DNA of 29,035 bases from a virus (taxonomy: Duplodnaviria; Heunggongvirae; Uroviricota; Caudoviricetes). The stretch lies in IMG/VR virus record IMGVR_UViG_2671180727_000026; one strand, given 5' to 3'. The translations under genes and the position numbers were made by a program. Under the pieces are notes generated by a model. The model was not told where the DNA came from, did not search any database, and worked only from the letters and a program-made list of their open reading frames with translations. This document shows, piece after piece, positions 2,490 to 27,128 of the stretch. The stretch's first letter is position 1, and each line of letters begins with the position of its first letter.

Positions 2490-3670
2490 CTAACCAGCCT
2501 TTTGTTTGAGGATTGTCACTTTTGAATCAGCAGCTGCGATGCTATTGAGATATGTAGTCCAGAGTTCCAGAGCATCCAGTTTTTTAGCCATAAACTTACT
2601 CCGGTTGTAAACACCTGCCACGCCAGGTAGCGCATGGCCTAACAGTTGTTCTACTACATAAAATTCAACACCGAGATCACTTAGATGAGTAGATAGCGTT
2701 CTTCTAAGGTCGTGTAGTGACCATTGTTTTTCATGGCCCAAACGTTTACCGATTTTCCCCCCAATCTTGCTTACGCTTTCTCTAATTCGCAGACTTCCCA
2801 GCACATAACCAGTATGTTTTGTCTCTTCGTGAACATCCGTTACCCACTGTCGTAAACAGTCCAAACCCAACTTTCGAGATCCCATTCGCTCCATTCTGAT
2901 AATCGGGCTTCACTCATTCGACATCCAAATACTGTACAAAGCACAAACATTTTTCGCGTGTATTCAGACATTAGTTTTAAATCAGGCTCGACAAAAATTG
3001 CCTTCCAGAGCTGGCCGAGTTCGGCTTCATCCAGAACCCGATCCCGCTTACCTGCAATCTGCCCCACATCACTCATGCGCAAATCCTTTAAAGCATCACA
3101 CGTCGCGTACTGGCGTACCCGACAAAAACGAAGAGCTAATTTAGTGTCAGAAAAAACATACGCCGCCATAACTGGTGCATTACGTTTAATTCGGTCAAAA
3201 CAGTCCAGCCATTCATATAGGTGAGTGTCATTTACGGGCAAATGACCGATATAGGGAAAGATATGCTTTCGAAATCTGCCAAGCGTTACAGCATGAGTTT
3301 TACGACGCACCTTACAGTAATTTTCATACCAGTAATTTAGTGCATCCTCCACTGTAACTGGCTTTAAGCGTTCTTCAGCCTGAATCTTAATCTGGATACG
3401 CGGATCACGTTTGTCAGCCAACCAACCACGGCACTCGTCGCGCTTTTCCCTTGCCTGTTTGAGTGACATATCAGGATATTTACCCAACGTTAGCCAGACC
3501 GGAGCAGCCCGGCCACCTGCTAACCTGTAGAAGAAAACAAAGCTCACAGCCCCTTTAGTACTCACACGAATAGAAAGCCCCTTTCCATCAGCAATGGTGA
3601 TCTGCTTTTCTCTGGGTTTCCCCAGATATCCTTTAAGCGCTTTGTCGCTCAGTTTGTTCTCGCCAGCCAT
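2490..3670 (-). pseudogene. P4-type tyrosine integrase, apparently frameshifted (N-terminal and catalytic parts in different frames)
   Basis: ORF 2840..3721 encodes the N-terminal arm/SAM-like part (GKGLSIRVSTKGAVSFVFFYR...); ORF 2490..2894 encodes the catalytic C-terminus (HDLRRT, LLGHA, VAGVYNR with the tyrosine nucleophile). They overlap at 2840-2894 in different frames. Confidence 0.75.
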
Positions 3671-17198: not shown

Positions 17199-17225
17199 AA
17201 CCCCCTCGATTATTTGAGGGGATTA
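17199..17225 (-). terminator. terminator-like hairpin between the 73-aa gene and the 169-aa moron gene
   Basis: Minus strand reads CCCCTC-aaataatc-GAGGGG followed by GTTTTTATG; preceded by TATAAT; the stem overlaps the likely SD of the downstream gene. Confidence 0.45.
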
Positions 17226-21131: not shown

Positions 21132-21671
21132 TCATATTGCCCCCAGCATGGTGGTCACCATCGCCATTAATGGACCAGCCAGATCCGGGTCCACACGAAA
21201 CATCGACACAATACCTTCACTCATTTCCTTCAGTTTCTGGTGGCGTGGTGCGTTGAGAATGACAGCCTGTTTTGCCTCACTGAGTTCCTTTTCCATTTCA
21301 GCCAACCGAGTCATGAAGCTATCCTGCTCAACCAGGTAACCGCGATATTCCAGCGGTAGTACCGCCAGAATTGCCGGGGTCAGTTCACGCACGTTATTTC
21401 GGTATTTTTCAGAATCGAATTTGTTATCGAGGAAGCGGAACAGCTTCTGGCGTGCACGGCTGACATCATCAGGGAAATCGATGGTGCCGTCGCCCTGCTC
21501 CCGATACTCATTCACAATGAGTGCGGCAACGACATCCTGATTATCTACAGCCGACCAGGCGCGGACGGCATCACGGATTTTTTCGTGGCCTGGAGCTTGT
21601 TTTGTTTGAGAACGATTTATCACCGCAGTCGGAATAAATCCGCTAGTCTGTTGGTATGTAAGTGGTTGCAT
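21132..21671 (-). CDS. hypothetical regulatory protein in the cII position (179 aa), possibly YdaT-like
   Basis: Occupies the slot between cro and O but is about twice the size of lambda CII; stop abuts the O region. YdaT-family assignment is a guess from context (downstream of a YdaS/Cro-like gene). Confidence 0.55.
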   Translation of the reverse strand: MQPLTYQQTSGFIPTAVINRSQTKQAPGHEKIRDAVRAWSAVDNQDVVAALIVNEYREQGDGTIDFPDDVSRARQKLFRFLDNKFDSEKYRNNVRELTPAILAVLPLEYRGYLVEQDSFMTRLAEMEKELSEAKQAVILNAPRHQKLKEMSEGIVSMFRVDPDLAGPLMAMVTTMLGAI

Positions 21672-21740
21672 AATTGACTCCTTTAGTTTGAATTGACTGT
21701 TAAGTTGATTGCTTATTGTTAAAGAGCGTGAAATGGAAAT

Positions 21741-21971
21741 TTAAGCTGCGTTCTTTTCGGTGTGTGGAAACAACTTCGGAAGATCCGGGCGAATCTGGTA
21801 TGCCTTCACAACTCCACCAGTAGCCGTAACAATGCTGCCGACATGTTCAGGGGATACCTTTGCTTTGTTGTGAAGCCACTTATAGACGGCCTGCTGTGAA
21901 ACTTCGCAGGCATCGCCTAGTTTCTTTTGTGAACCAACGATATTGATCGCTGTTTTGATTGCTGGGTTCAT
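21741..21971 (-). CDS. cro: Cro-like HTH repressor (YdaS/Cro family)
   Basis: 76 aa; ...QKKLGDACEVSQQAVYKWLHNKAKVSPEHVGSIVTATGGVVKAYQIRPDL fits the Cro/YdaS HTH pattern; divergent from cI across the operator region. Confidence 0.75.
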   Translation of the reverse strand: MNPAIKTAINIVGSQKKLGDACEVSQQAVYKWLHNKAKVSPEHVGSIVTATGGVVKAYQIRPDLPKLFPHTEKNAA

Positions 21972-22075
21972 AACAACCTCCGTGGTTAATCCGAATCAAG
22001 ATTAAAACTATGGTTGTTTTTAGTCAACAACCATTTTCGTTTGATGAAATAAAACCTTGGTTGTACATTTGATCT
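21972..22075. promoter_or_regulatory. OR-like operator/promoter region between divergent cro and cI
   Basis: 104-bp AT-rich gap with repeated CAACC/GGTTG-containing elements (AACTATGGTTG, CAACAACCATTTT, CCTTGGTTG) related to the palindromes at the pL-like promoter. Confidence 0.55.
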
Positions 22076-22765
22076 ATGAAAACAACACTCTCAGAAAGAC
22101 TTAAAGAAGCCAGATTAGCGCGAGGCCTTACACAAAAGGCGCTTGGGGATTTGGTCGGGGTTAGCCAGGCTGCTATTCAGAAAATCGAAACAGGGAAAGC
22201 TAACCAAACAACTAAAATCGTGGAGATCGCGAACGCTTTGGGTGTACGCGCAGAATGGTTATCTTCTGGCGTTGGAAATATGTCAGACAGTACAGTGCAA
22301 CCAATACAATCAACTGTCAGCCATTCCAAATACTTCAAAATTGACGTTCTTGATATAGAAGTCAGTGCCGGGCCAGGTGTAATCAACCGTGAGTTTGTAG
22401 AAGTTCTACGCTCGGTTGAGTACTCGTTTGACGATGCTCGTCACATGTTCGATGGCAGGAAGGCGGAAAATATCCGCATCATTAACGTGCGAGGTGACAG
22501 CATGTCAGGGACGATCGAACCAGGTGACCTGCTGTTCGTTGATATCACTGTTAAATCTTTCGACGGTGATGGCATCTATGCGTTTCTGTACGACGACACT
22601 GCCCATGTAAAACGTCTTCAAATGATGAAGGATAAGCTGCTGGTTATCTCTGATAACAAGAGCTACTCGCCGTGGGACCCGATCGAGAAAGACGAGATGA
22701 ACCGGGTGTTCATATTCGGTAAGGTCATTGGAAGCATGCCGCAGACGTACAGGAAGCATGGTTAA
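22076..22765 (+). CDS. cI: CI-type prophage repressor (N-terminal HTH, C-terminal LexA/S24-like autocleavage domain)
   Basis: 229 aa; N-terminus LSERLKEARLARGLTQKALGDLVGVSQAAIQKIETGK is an XRE-type HTH; C-terminal ...VRGDSMSGTIEPGDLLFVD...VKRL... carries the Ser and Lys motifs of S24 peptidases. Confidence 0.9.
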   Translation: MKTTLSERLKEARLARGLTQKALGDLVGVSQAAIQKIETGKANQTTKIVEIANALGVRAEWLSSGVGNMSDSTVQPIQSTVSHSKYFKIDVLDIEVSAGPGVINREFVEVLRSVEYSFDDARHMFDGRKAENIRIINVRGDSMSGTIEPGDLLFVDITVKSFDGDGIYAFLYDDTAHVKRLQMMKDKLLVISDNKSYSPWDPIEKDEMNRVFIFGKVIGSMPQTYRKHG

Positions 22766-22994
22766 TTTATCTACGACTTAAGGGAGCGAAGGTTAAGGTT
22801 TATACCACTCGGATTAGATATTGCACTAAATTCTCTATAAGAACGCCAAATCTGTTTGCATATTTCAGTAAATATTCTCGTTGTTAGCTGAGATTTGTTG
22901 CTACTGTCAGCAAAATGTCCCCCTATCTCGTAGCGGTTTTTATTTCGAATCATTATGTTAAGATGTTTCTGATTATAATGAATGGAAACATAAA

Positions 22995-23375
22995 ATGAGA
23001 AAAATCCTAATCGCTGCCATGATGGCATCTGTATTGGCTGGGTGTGCTTCTTCAGGCAACCAGCAACTCAAAAATGAAACTGAAATTAGTGTCCAGTCTA
23101 AACTTCAGGAAGGTAAAACAACCAAGAATGAGGTTAAATCTTACTTTGGTTCTCCTGATGCTGTTTCATATACTGACAGTGGAAACGAGATCTGGAAGTA
23201 CGCCTTTGCAAAAGTAAAAGTTAATGGCACCACTTTTATTCCATTCTATGGATTATTCCATAATGGAACGAACGGTACGAAAAAAGAACTTACTATTCTT
23301 TTTAACGATGACACGATTAAGAAATACACAATGTCAGAAACCCAAATAAACTCGAAATCAGGTTGGGCTGACTGA
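22995..23375 (+). CDS. lipoprotein moron (126 aa), possibly SmpA/OmlA (BamE)-like
   Basis: Signal peptide with lipobox (VLAGCASS); AT-rich; own upstream AT-rich region containing TATAAT; terminator immediately downstream; segment NEVKSYFGSPDAVSYTDSGNEIWKYAF resembles the BamE-family core. Confidence 0.75.
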   Translation: MRKILIAAMMASVLAGCASSGNQQLKNETEISVQSKLQEGKTTKNEVKSYFGSPDAVSYTDSGNEIWKYAFAKVKVNGTTFIPFYGLFHNGTNGTKKELTILFNDDTIKKYTMSETQINSKSGWAD

Positions 23376-23383
23376 TAATCATA

Positions 23384-23410
23384 CCCGGCAACCGCGCCGG
23401 GTTTTCTTTT
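23384..23410 (+). terminator. rho-independent terminator after the lipoprotein gene
   Basis: CCCGGC-aaccgc-GCCGGG followed by TTTTCTTTT, 9 nt after the stop codon. Confidence 0.65.
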
Positions 23411-23537
23411 CCTCCCCCTCATAACTCATACCGTCCAAAAAACCACCACACCTCACTTCAGTTATCGCTATGCGATGCAAGTCACAAAATAAATCCATCC
23501 TAAATACAACCAGTTATATTTAAAACAACCGATAAAA

Positions 23538-23578
23538 CAACTTTTGTTGTTGACGATAAAACAACTATAGTTTTAAAT
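23538..23578 (+). promoter_or_regulatory. pL-like early-left promoter with overlapping operator palindromes
   Basis: TTGACG (23550-23555), 17 nt, TTAAAT (23573-23578), directed toward gam-bet-exo; overlapped by the perfect palindromes CAACTTTTGTTG (23538-23549) and AACTATAGTT (23562-23571). Confidence 0.55.
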
Positions 23579-23771
23579 AAATTCATCGCAACGACACAAC
23601 GATACGGTAACCACCTGTTTCACCGTTGCGATGACCGCTTAGATCCGCAGCTTGAATTTCAGCAGGCTTCGGGGAGTGCGAGGGATGAAACGGACGCGTG
23701 AACGTCGGTGTGACCAGCTGAAATCAACTCAACATTTCATACCTTAGTCGCTTCAACGAGGCGGCTTAGTT

Positions 23772-24062
23772 ATGACAACCGGCGGCCATCCACCGCCTGA
23801 ATACGCGCAGAAGTCTTTATATGTTCAGCAGCCCAGCTTACGGGCAGGAGTTTTTATGGTTCATCAACATTACGGAACGCAGACCGTTAATCGAGGTGCG
23901 GTCATGCCAGGAATGCTGGTCAAACACAAAGATGGTACCTGGACTGCATCAGCTAATTTACGCGGACGGCTTTATCTGCATCGCGGCATCGAGCGCACTT
24001 ATACCCGTGATTTGCTCGTGGAAGTTTTTCTCGACGGACGCGGTAACGGCCTGAATCACTAA
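23772..24062 (+). CDS. hypothetical protein (96 aa; alternative shorter start possible) in the kil/cIII position
   Basis: ORF between the pL-like promoter and gam; not similar to lambda N, cIII or Kil as I recall them. Coding status uncertain. Confidence 0.4.
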   Translation: MTTGGHPPPEYAQKSLYVQQPSLRAGVFMVHQHYGTQTVNRGAVMPGMLVKHKDGTWTASANLRGRLYLHRGIERTYTRDLLVEVFLDGRGNGLNH

Positions 24063-24138
24063 CCCCCCTTTCCTGTTTTCCTAATCAGCCTGGCATTTCG
24101 CGGGCGATATTTTCACAGCCATTTTCAGGAGTTCAGCC

Positions 24139-24435
24139 ATGAACGCTTATTACATTCAGGATCGTCTTGAGGCTCAGAGCTGGGCGCGTCACTACCAGCA
24201 GATCGCCCGTGAAGAGAAAGAGGCAGAACTGGCAGACGACATGGAAAAAGGCCTGCCCCAGCATTTGTTTGAATCGCTCTGCATCGATCATTTACAACGC
24301 TGCGGGGCCAGCAAAAAAGCCATTACCCGTGCATTTGATGACGATGTTGAGTTTCAGGAGCGCATGGCAGAACACATCCGGTACATGGTTGAAACCATTG
24401 CTCACCATCAGGTTGATATTGATTCAGAGGTATAA
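24139..24435 (+). CDS. gam: Gam (RecBCD inhibitor), short GamS-type form
   Basis: 98 aa [98 protein letters not shown] matches lambda GamS; the in-frame upstream extension is interrupted by a stop codon. Confidence 0.9.
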
Positions 24436-24440
24436 AACGG

Positions 24441-25226
24441 ATGAGTACAGCACTCGCAACGCTGGCTGGGAAGCTGGCTGAACGTGTCGGCATGGATTCT
24501 GTCGACCCACAGGAACTGATCACCACTCTTCGCCAGACGGCATTTAAAGGCGATGCCAGCGATGCGCAGTTCATCGCATTGCTGATCGTCGCCAACCAGT
24601 ACGGCCTTAATCCGTGGACGAAAGAAATTTACGCCTTCCCTGATAAGCAGAACGGCATCGTTCCGGTGGTGGGCGTTGATGGCTGGTCCCGCATCATCAA
24701 TGAAAACCAGCAGTTTGATGGCATGGACTTTGAGCAGGACAACGAATCCTGTACATGCCGGATTTACCGCAAGGACCGTAATCATCCGATCTGCGTTACC
24801 GAATGGATGGATGAATGCCGCCGCGAACCATTCAAAACCCGCGAAGGCAGAGAAATCACGGGGCCGTGGCAGTCGCATCCCAAACGGATGTTACGGCATA
24901 AAGCCATGATTCAGTGTGCCCGTCTGGCCTTCGGATTTGCTGGTATCTATGACAAGGATGAAGCCGAGCGCATTGTCGAAAATACCGCATACACTGCAGA
25001 ACGCCAGCCGGAACGCGACATCACTCCGGTTAACGATGAAACCATGCAGGAGATTAACACTCTGCTGATTGCCCTGGACAAAACATGGGATGACGACTTA
25101 TTGCCGCTCTGTTCCCAGATATTTCGCCGCGACATTCGCGCATCGTCAGAACTGACACAGGCCGAAGCAGTAAAAGCTCTTGGATTCCTGAAACAGAAAG
25201 CCGCAGAGCAGAAGGTGGCAGCATGA
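24441..25226 (+). CDS. bet: Bet (Red-beta single-strand annealing protein)
   Basis: 261 aa [100 protein letters not shown]... matches lambda Bet. Confidence 0.95.
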
Positions 25227-25903
25227 CACCGGACATTATCCTGCAGCGTACCGGGATCGACGTGAGAGCTGTCGAACAGGGGGATGATGCGTGGCACAAA
25301 TTACGGCTCGGCGTCATCACAGCTTCAGAAGTTCATAACGTAATAGCAAAACCCCGCTCCGGAAAAAAGTGGCCTGACATGAAAATGTCCTACTTCCACA
25401 CCCTGCTTGCTGAGGTTTGCACCGGTGTGGCTCCGGAAGTTAACGCTAAAGCGCTGGCCTGGGGAAAACAGTACGAGAACGACGCCAGAGCCCTGTTTGA
25501 GTTCACTTCCGGCGTGAATGTTACTGAATCACCGATCATCTATCGCGACGAAAGTATGCGTACCGCCTGCTCTCCAGATGGTTTATGCAGTGACGGCAAC
25601 GGCCTTGAACTGAAATGCCCGTTTACCTCCCGGGATTTCATGAAGTTCCGGCTCGGTGGTTTCGAGGCCATAAAGTCAGCTTACATGGCCCAGGTGCAGT
25701 ACAGCATGTGGGTGACGCGAAAAGATGCCTGGTACTTTACCAACTATGACCCGCGTATGAAGCGTGAAGGACTGCATTATGTCGTGGTTGAGCGGGATGA
25801 AAATTACATGGCGAGTTTTGACGAGATGGTGCCGGAGTTCATCGAAAAAATGAACGAGGCACTGGCTGAAATTGGTTTTGTATTTGGGGAGCAATGGCGA
25901 TGA
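25223..25903 (+). CDS. exo: Exo (Red-alpha 5'-3' exonuclease)
   Basis: 226 aa [167 protein letters not shown]... matches lambda Exo; ATGA overlap with bet. Confidence 0.95.
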
Positions 25904-26058
25904 AGCATCCTCACGATAATATCCGGGTAGGTGCGATCACTTTCGTCTACTCCGTTACAAAGCGAGGCTGGGTATTTCCCGGCCTTTCTGTTATCCGAAA
26001 TCCGCTGAAAGCCCAGCGACTGGCTGAGGAGATAAATAATAAACGGGAGAGTGTATGA
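25900..26058 (+). CDS. small ORF (52 aa) coupled between exo and the TGT-like gene
   Basis: Hand-translated [52 protein letters not shown]; start overlaps the exo stop and stop overlaps the next start (ATGA). Confidence 0.4.
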
Positions 26059-27030: not shown

Positions 27031-27128
27031 ACATGAAAAGAAAAATCATCAGGGAGCTACAGGCTCCTTTTTTATTGTTCGCATTCATCCTCAAGCGTAT
27101 TAACCAACAATTCAGGGATTAATGGAAG

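Follow-up and report, generated by a model that had tools for sequence, protein, structure and literature searches.

Early antitermination is a textbook control step of lambdoid development, for which, to our knowledge, only two solutions are known in lambdoid phages, N/nut and put. In lambda the sequence transcribed first from pL carries nutL, in which a boxA is combined with a boxB hairpin. The put RNAs (HK022 putL and putR, and those of HK639, phiEt88, HK75 and P22-like prophages) are non-coding, with putL located directly after pL in lambdoid phages that lack N, and comprise ∼70–140 nt with at least two stem-loops and conserved unpaired nucleotides. They suppress pausing and termination in cis by way of the beta′ zinc-binding domain of RNA polymerase. 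A survey in 2025 noted lambdoid phages without N, for which put was merely guessed (PMC12315714).

The DNA analysed here, the 29,035-nucleotide IMG/VR virus record IMGVR_UViG_2671180727_000026 (Caudoviricetes; the whole stretch is referred to as the window), is a lambda-like prophage, the plus strand of which runs in lambda's leftward direction and carries pL and the features described downstream of it. Neither N/nut nor put is present in the group to which it belongs, which is very common and comprises lambda-like prophages of E. coli as well as plaque-forming phages. The pL promoter is followed by a 271-nt leader that is non-coding but constrained, and which splits into two modules. Module 1, for which we use our own label PLE (23585–23727, core 23633–23723), starts at the inferred transcription start site (TSS) and lies in the slot occupied by nutL and putL in other phages; module 2 is a structured intergenic cassette (23738–23855) that precedes kil. 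A literature search found no description of the leader element, and Rfam 15 contains neither module. Comparison of PLE-bearing, put and N loci suggests, at just short of an even chance, that PLE is a cis-acting antitermination element analogous to put, while not being a member of the put family. A somewhat more tentative proposal is that PLE represents a family of processive antiterminator RNAs acting in cis that has not been described before, and which would add a third solution to N/nut and put.

The pL leader contains neither N, nutL nor put

A sequence-only reading of this region had noted that only ∼560 bp separate pL from gam, a spacing confirmed by the −35 hexamer TTGACG at 23550–23555 and the gam ATG at 24139. 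The promoter (23550–23579) was assigned from its sequence and by alignment with the well-spaced promoter of phage Perceval (TTGATA-17-TATTAT), which places the −10 element (TTAAAT/TAAATA) at 23573–23579 and, by position, the TSS near 23585. TATAGT was rejected as the −10 hexamer, being merely 10 nt from TTGACG. Operator half-sites (AACAAC/GTTGTT) flank the promoter, and recombination breakpoints relative to other immunity types fall at 23585/86. Homology to lambda begins at 24056 (lambda 33193), and blastn detected no resemblance to lambda between pL and this point. The 2.4 kb of lambda that extends from N through kil is replaced by 0.48 kb of unrelated DNA, and the region is therefore a mosaic substitution, not an internal deletion. 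This conflicts with the earlier suggestion that N had been deleted or inactivated, and with a deletion scar.

Profile searches with Pfam, PHROG and NCBIfam identified no N protein in the window; phrog_271 recognized N in the control loci. The first pL gene does not encode an N protein with an arginine-rich motif (ARM), and tblastn of the upstream open reading frame (ORF) against 50,697 phage records returned only the same leader, never an N. The pL leader contains no boxA within two mismatches and displays no similarity to the lambda leader, so that a nutL consisting of boxA and a boxB hairpin is not present, and the rrn-type consensus boxA (GCUCUUUAACAA) occurs in the pR transcript only. These data bear out the view that N and a lambda-type nutL are absent between pL (∼23585) and gam (24139). 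The earlier failure to find a lambda-type boxA and boxB is borne out for the pL leader; on the pR side a perfect boxA follows cro.

The put family was represented by a covariance model, R1, built from seven put RNAs from five phages (HK022, phiEt88, HK639, CobraSix and S9-5). R1 scored its training sequences at 64–99 bits and recovered the untrained, divergent put of Pantoea phage PdC23 (48.6 bits, E=1e-7). Its best match in the window, 8.6 bits, is away from the leader, in which it found nothing, and it returned no matches in ∼100 related PLE loci (positive controls 49–99 bits). The conserved put core (CGAACGGC...GUCGG...GGCG-GG...CAAU) in its two-stem fold was likewise not found in the window. 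Rfam gave no matches at the gathering score across the whole window and, at E values up to 10, only noise in 21500–24200; the RfaH ops element is absent. The term 'put-like', offered in the sequence-only reading for a possible cis-acting RNA in the leader, is thus wrong as a statement of family membership; as a statement of function it is plausibly right, on the comparative evidence that the leader module holds the putL/N position in homologous operons with the same terminators.

PLE is a constrained non-coding RNA module

Of 5426 complete E. coli genomes, 2231 (41%) contain the 281-nt sequence 23580–23860 at 95–99% identity, and the leader is also present in plaque-forming phages (the PhiR series, Perceval, 4A7, 4C10 and Turner), which are complete and in which Q is the sole annotated antiterminator. 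A 20-mer from the leader is absent from GTDB species-representative genomes; the element is thus in essence restricted to prophages of E. coli, and cross-species covariation is unavailable. Nucleotide diversity in the leader is 0.026, compared with 0.073 at kil third positions and 0.010 at kil positions 1 and 2; 19.5% of leader sites are segregating vs 57% of kil third positions, and the leader lacks 3-periodicity. The leader is under purifying selection as non-coding sequence, which, together with its wide distribution, further contradicts its interpretation as a deletion scar.

PLE comprises, in order, a variable 5′ hairpin (H1), a single-stranded GACCGCUUAGA motif, the helix H2, a purine-rich GGGGAGUGCGAGGG motif, the variable hairpin H3 and GGUGUGACCAGCUGAAA. 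H1, identified by folding (23583–23634), has an 11-bp stem (CATCGCAACG.../...CGTTGCGATG) and occupies a variable region; its 5′ arm is missing in a third immunity type, and in a second PLE subtype, the L157 type, the region is swapped for other sequence. In the window the core (23633–23723; covariance model R3, alignment A9) consists of GACCGCTTAGA, H2, GGGGAGTGCGAGGG, H3 and GGTGTGACCAGCTGAAA, and is a single-copy match to R3 at 118.8 bits. The L157 type, found in 17 IMG/VR loci, is 82% identical to the window type. Between the two subtypes two pairs of H2 (23644–23673, invariant loop AATTTCAG) change on both sides, from A-U/G-C to C-G/A-U, and 95.8% of cells are paired. H3 (23693–23706) is a short hairpin of variable sequence and fixed position that displays one compensatory pair; in the L157 type its sequence is replaced by another hairpin in register. 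The elements that are invariant across both subtypes are the H2 loop AAUUUCAG and the three motifs GACCGCUUAGA, GGGGAGUGCGAGGG and GGUGUGACCAGCUGAAA. The covariation score of PLE was reached by none of 500 shuffles, and control alignments in which the pairing partner was slid by 1–3 columns contained no compensatory changes.

The boundaries of the module are sharp. PLE starts a few bases after the −10 element of at least 11 promoter/operator types (three in the window type and eight in the L157 type), while its 3′ end is fixed at CAGCTG(A/G)AA, after which at least four unrelated modules or sequences follow. At the extreme 5′ end a motif (CATCGCAACGACACAACGA, 23585–23603), common to the window-type and L157-type leaders, coincides with the start of the transcript. 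This motif (CATCGNAACGNNACANCGA in PLE phages at large) is also located ahead of putL in phiEt88 (L006 ∼2150–2185) and in the leader of Klebsiella phage ST101-KPC2phi6.1 (L133 ∼3083–3100), and may be a separate TSS-proximal signal.

PLE, putL and N head homologous early-left operons

The cassette that forms module 2 recurs elsewhere behind an intrinsic terminator, and the position of these terminator-plus-cassette units, detected with covariance model R2, relates PLE to the two known systems. In each of the eight L157-type loci that extend far enough, units follow PLE at a distance of 700–1900 nt; in 10 loci they follow putL at 400–1350 nt. They are also located downstream of N genes of the lambda type and the 933W type (both phrog_271), and downstream of a third N-like head, an 82-aa ARM protein, in five contigs. 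One relative has the terminator GACCCGCTCCGGCGGGTTTTTT. The PLE model gave no matches in 838 kb of put, N and other loci, and no N-like ORF was found within 3.5 kb downstream of PLE in any of 106 loci; in the loci examined N, putL and PLE heads never occur together. PLE, putL and N/nutL are therefore positional alternatives that head homologous early-left operons containing the same intrinsic terminators. The put phage phiEt88 shares the cI/operator type of the window and has putL and putR where the window has PLE and a boxA-containing spacer. The core of PLE, 91 nt out of ∼140 nt in total, is longer than that of put.

A candidate antitermination RNA and its alternatives

PLE is read as a put-analogous antiterminator because the same terminator-plus-cassette units follow N, putL or PLE and the three heads do not co-occur. 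The fact that both positional alternatives, putL and N/nutL, are processive antitermination devices supports this reading, from which we infer the activity and mechanism of PLE. A need for antitermination in these phages is suggested by the lambda-derived distal operon, which, according to a terminator scan, appears to retain intrinsic terminators, and by the complete, plaque-forming phages with this module, in which Q alone is annotated as an antiterminator. A terminator-like hairpin is located inside orf60a (25964–25986), equivalent by alignment to lambda ∼31263–31285 and presumably tL3, and a strong terminator-like site (27051–27069; 8-bp stem and T7) lies upstream of xis/int. PLE would head an early-left operon without N and put, transcription of which would start near 23585 under the control of cI. 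The nascent PLE RNA would then act in cis, on the very RNA polymerase transcribing it, either directly, as does HK022 put, or via host elongation factors. The polymerase would become resistant to termination, such that transcription from pL could pass downstream intrinsic terminators, in the window those at 25964–25986 and 27051–27069, and in relatives those that precede each cassette.

Several observations weigh against an antiterminator. The proximal operon of the window type, kil-gam-bet-exo, has no strong terminator, and antitermination is thus not needed for these genes. No second copy was found by R3 on the pR side of the window, in contrast to HK022, which has putR. The segment 23620–23860 folds no better than shuffles (z=0.0), and the z of −2.2 for 23575–23775 is mostly due to the single 11-bp hairpin at 23583–23634; the leader, described earlier as hairpin-rich, fits that description only in part and overall is not unusually structured. 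As there are only two PLE subtypes, each compensatory change is effectively one evolutionary event. Around 10 cassette loci have neither put, PLE nor a recognized N upstream, so that some operons may do without a known device at their head, and the loci were retrieved by sequence patterns, which introduces ascertainment bias. Finally, a location at the 5′ end would also be appropriate for a riboregulator, an mRNA stabilizer or a site for RNase III or Hfq.

These last functions are the substance of the main rival explanation, in which there is no antitermination at pL and the leader is a conserved regulatory 5′ untranslated region (UTR) that controls the stability or translation of the toxic kil and of the Red genes through a 5′ stem-loop, an RNase III or Hfq/small RNA (sRNA) site, or an upstream ORF. 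Independence from N would have been gained by replacing N together with the tL1 and tL2 sites, and expression of the distal genes would depend on leak-through or on promoters of their own. The terminator scan, which detected no strong terminator between pL and the end of exo, is consistent with this model, as is the content of the replaced lambda segment, which holds N and at least tL2a, located between ea10 and ral (bioRxiv 10.1101/2024.10.31.621285). The terminator that usually precedes the cassette is missing in the window type, and the cassette itself is the 5′ UTR of many different genes. In addition, the 5′ motif contains a CA-rich stretch (23588–23601; CAACAACACAAC in the majority of variants) with complementarity to the GU-rich seed of GcvB, a host sRNA; the predicted duplex is only marginally better than chance (20 of 500 shuffles were as good). 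An anti-sRNA of the AgvB type does not apply here, since AgvB is located 3′ of pR′ and not at pL (PMC4104026). The regulatory model leaves unexplained why PLE lies at the TSS of 11 promoter types with at least four different sets of downstream genes, why canonical terminators lie downstream in L157-type PLE operons that lack put and N, and why PLE is exclusive with both. We regard it as less likely than the put-analogous reading, at clearly below even odds.

An alternative in which PLE is a nut-like recruitment site would retain a role in antitermination. Here an antitermination complex would be built from host Nus factors, or from a phage protein whose gene lies away from pL, bound at GACCGCUUAGA and H2. 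In its layout PLE does recall boxA-boxB, with a single-stranded motif and, ∼2 nt further on, a hairpin whose stem covaries and whose loop is invariant. A perfect rrn-type boxA follows cro in the window immunity type, and a boxA by itself, with no phage factor, can counter termination by Rho (PMC7665894). The GACCGCUUAGA motif, however, is not a boxA, the leader contains no boxB-type pentaloop hairpin, no conserved protein gene accompanies PLE, and other immunity types with the same leader lack the pR boxA. A nut-like site is therefore improbable.

Still less probable is the view that the leader is a deletion scar with the arginine-rich mini-ORF as the remnant of an N gene, or that a 125-aa ORF, open in some relatives, encodes a real N-like protein fused to Kil. 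The sequence-only reading had placed a 20-codon ORF (MKRTRERR...) at 23676–23738 and compared it with an N-type ARM; the ORF in fact spans 23685–23747 and is not a gene. In favour of this view are the resemblance of KRTRERR to TRRRERR of lambda N and a frame that, in about half of the 86 loci, runs without interruption through kil. Among the 86 leader copies gathered from IMG/VR and phage records (73 distinct variants), the start codon of the mini-ORF is ATG in 11 variants and GTG in 62, while its stop is TAG in 25 and CAG in the others, which opens the 125-aa frame into kil. This longer frame is disrupted independently by the TAG, a 5-nt duplication, a 2-nt deletion and a 1-nt deletion, and segregating sites in the upstream frames are distributed 13/8/13 over codon positions 1, 2 and 3, displaying no periodicity. 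In the L157 subtype the mini-ORF reads GTG-TAA. The arginine-rich peptide apparently encoded by H3 reflects the fact that its arginine codons are the arms of this CG-rich hairpin. These polymorphisms, in conjunction with the absence of any N family match, of any N identified by tblastn, and of similarity at the DNA level to lambda or the leader of any phage with N, rule out the mini-ORF as a small N and make a pseudogene very improbable. The ATG allele at 23685 occurs only alongside the TAG allele at 23745 (14 of 14 loci), which is probably linkage within one sublineage that includes the window and E. coli ET201. The proposal that the leader is a diverged member of the HK022 put family, suggested by its location directly behind pL, by the lack of N and by short resemblances noticed by eye (UCGGGGAG and GGAUGAAACGG), has practically no chance given the failure of R1, a model that recovers the divergent PdC23 put, to detect it.

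The put-analogous reading presents a directly testable question, as PLE is a compact, sharply bounded ∼140-nt RNA module in the slot of N/nut and put. If active, PLE would be a new RNA that reprograms E. coli RNA polymerase, useful for the study of elongation control and as a genetic part; if inactive, these phages would be natural relatives of lambda that manage without antitermination at pL. Should PLE be a third solution, the terminator-plus-cassette units would represent shared operon punctuation that is read through by all three systems.

The intergenic cassette is the 5′ untranslated region of kil

Module 2 (23738–23855; R2, 89.5 bits) serves as the 5′ UTR of the gene that follows it, in the window kil. 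The order of its elements here is CATACCTTAG, hairpin hpA (23746–23766), TTAGTTATGA, hpB (23781–23797, loop CCATCCA), GCGCAGAAGTCT, hpC (23831–23845) and a Shine-Dalgarno (SD) sequence (23846–23850). The cassette, of which 127 instances (81 of the window type and 46 outside it) were collected, has the general order CATACCTYAG, hpA, TTAGTTATGA, hpB (loop CYATCCA), GCGCAGAAGTCT, hpC, SD and ATG. Three pairs of hpA display compensatory changes, the covariation score was reached by none of 500 shuffles, and the slid controls were empty. The conserved GCGCAGAAGTCT is read in different frames among the variants, showing that the constraint is on the nucleic acid and not on a peptide. Of the 46 copies that are not of the window type, 45 lie immediately behind a variable gene's stop codon and a canonical intrinsic terminator; all 81 window-type copies lack the terminator. 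The cassette is not in Rfam and represents a second uncatalogued structured RNA motif, distributed across prophages of the Enterobacteriaceae.

Cassettes were identified in HK225, S9-5, ENT1, CobraSix and HK639, and in 44 further IMG/VR contigs (copies include L004:4004, L129:2503, L131:1201, L007:614–674, L128:2371–2431 and those in L138–L181), preceding a wide range of unrelated early genes in lambdoid and P22-like prophages. In some copies hpB (GGCGGCCATCCACCGCC) is followed by a T-run (L007:605–633, which is HK639, L140 and L145), and the HK639 record annotates this combination as a terminator; hpB of the window lacks the T-run. The possibility that the cassette is a sigma-70 promoter was discarded, as inspection revealed no acceptable hexamers.

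The gene downstream of the cassette, kil (23856–24062), encodes a 68-aa KilR-type FtsZ/cell-division inhibitor, and is preceded by the SD sequence AGGAG (23846–23850), 6 nt before the ATG at 23856. The match to phrog_294 (E=1.3e-37) spans residues 1–68, and the same residues align to positions 1–70 of the 73 in NCBIfam NF008465 (Rac KilR, FtsZ inhibitor), a full-length match to a ∼70-aa profile. The score against NF008465, 63 bits, is below the cut-off of 92, and the protein is therefore assigned to a sister subfamily. Homologues in databases are mostly 68 aa and carry PF27398, and the segregating sites in kil, 8/11/39 over the three codon positions, contrast with those of the upstream frames. 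The window product is a member of the Rac KilR/phage Kil group (phrog_294, PF27398, NF008465) and is unrelated to lambda's own 47-aa Kil.

The 96-aa ORF previously considered to be of unknown family thus consists of Kil/KilR in its C-terminal 68 aa. Its N-terminal extension (MTTGGHPPP..., 23772–23855) is not coding as part of Kil, since it lacks codon periodicity and contains frameshifts and stops among variants. Extended forms of Kil, of 96 or 125 aa, are ruled out by the predominant 68-aa length of the homologues and the lack of conservation of the extension. In the L157 locus the minus strand contains a ∼380-nt ORF-free stretch downstream of PLE, in which one segment (L157:4560–4650; ATCAGCTAGTTGGTGAGGTAATGGCTCACCAAGGCGACGA) may resemble 16S rRNA.

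The pR transcript and the surrounding genes

The pR operon, on the minus strand, comprises cro (21971–21741), a 69-nt spacer, a cII-like gene, O, P, ren, a nin-like region with an intrinsic terminator at 17224–17199, and Q (15023–14625). The spacer contains a consensus boxA, GCTCTTTAACAA (21716–21727, minus strand), the only exact match in the window. The spacer (21672–21740) is C-rich and G-poor, with a C/G ratio of 3–3.5, and is thus rut-like; its layout resembles rutA-nutR-rutB of lambda, but no boxB hairpin is present and no G+C hairpin follows the boxA. The boxA co-occurs with the window immunity type only, being absent from the other leader-carrying immunity types.

In other immunity types (L133:96–134 and L002:3265–3288, minus strands) the cro stop codon lies inside a GC hairpin with a 7-nt loop, CUAACCA or CUAAUCU, which we take to resemble the boxB loop of phage 21. 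These phages have no annotated N gene. The boxA of the window is reminiscent of rrn-type boxA and Nus-factor antitermination in rRNA operons and CRISPR arrays (PMC7665894), in that it lies in an untranslated, C-rich spacer and would require no phage factor. This comparison concerns the pR side of the window immunity type only and does not extend to the pL element; rrn-type boxA counters termination by Rho, as opposed to that at intrinsic terminators.

The leader and the cro region share two short, colinear matches. The 5′ arm and loop of H2 (23646–23660) match 21750–21736 on the minus strand, at the end of cro (CGCAGCTTGAATTTC vs CGCAGCTTAAATTTC), and 23722–23734 matches 21710–21698 on the minus strand, in the cro-cII spacer (AATCAACTCAACA vs AATCAACTTAACA). 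Matches of this quality were equalled by one of 200 shuffles, and both lie in an immunity-specific segment missing from other leader-carrying immunity types; they are treated here as unexplained or chance resemblances.

Downstream of kil, the block gam-bet-exo-orf60a (24056–26057) is homologous to lambda, with 97% identity to lambda 33193–31194 by blastn. It contains gam (24139–24435; Pfam Gam, E=5e-64), bet (24441–25226) and exo (25223–25903). On the other side of pL the immunity region contains cI (22076–22765), and the immunity transcript ends with a lipoprotein moron (22995–23375) and a terminator (23383–23402), next to which is the pL/operator region. The moron, located between cI and pL in the slot of lambda rexAB, displays weak similarity to the BamE domain (E=1.6e-4, under the cut-off).

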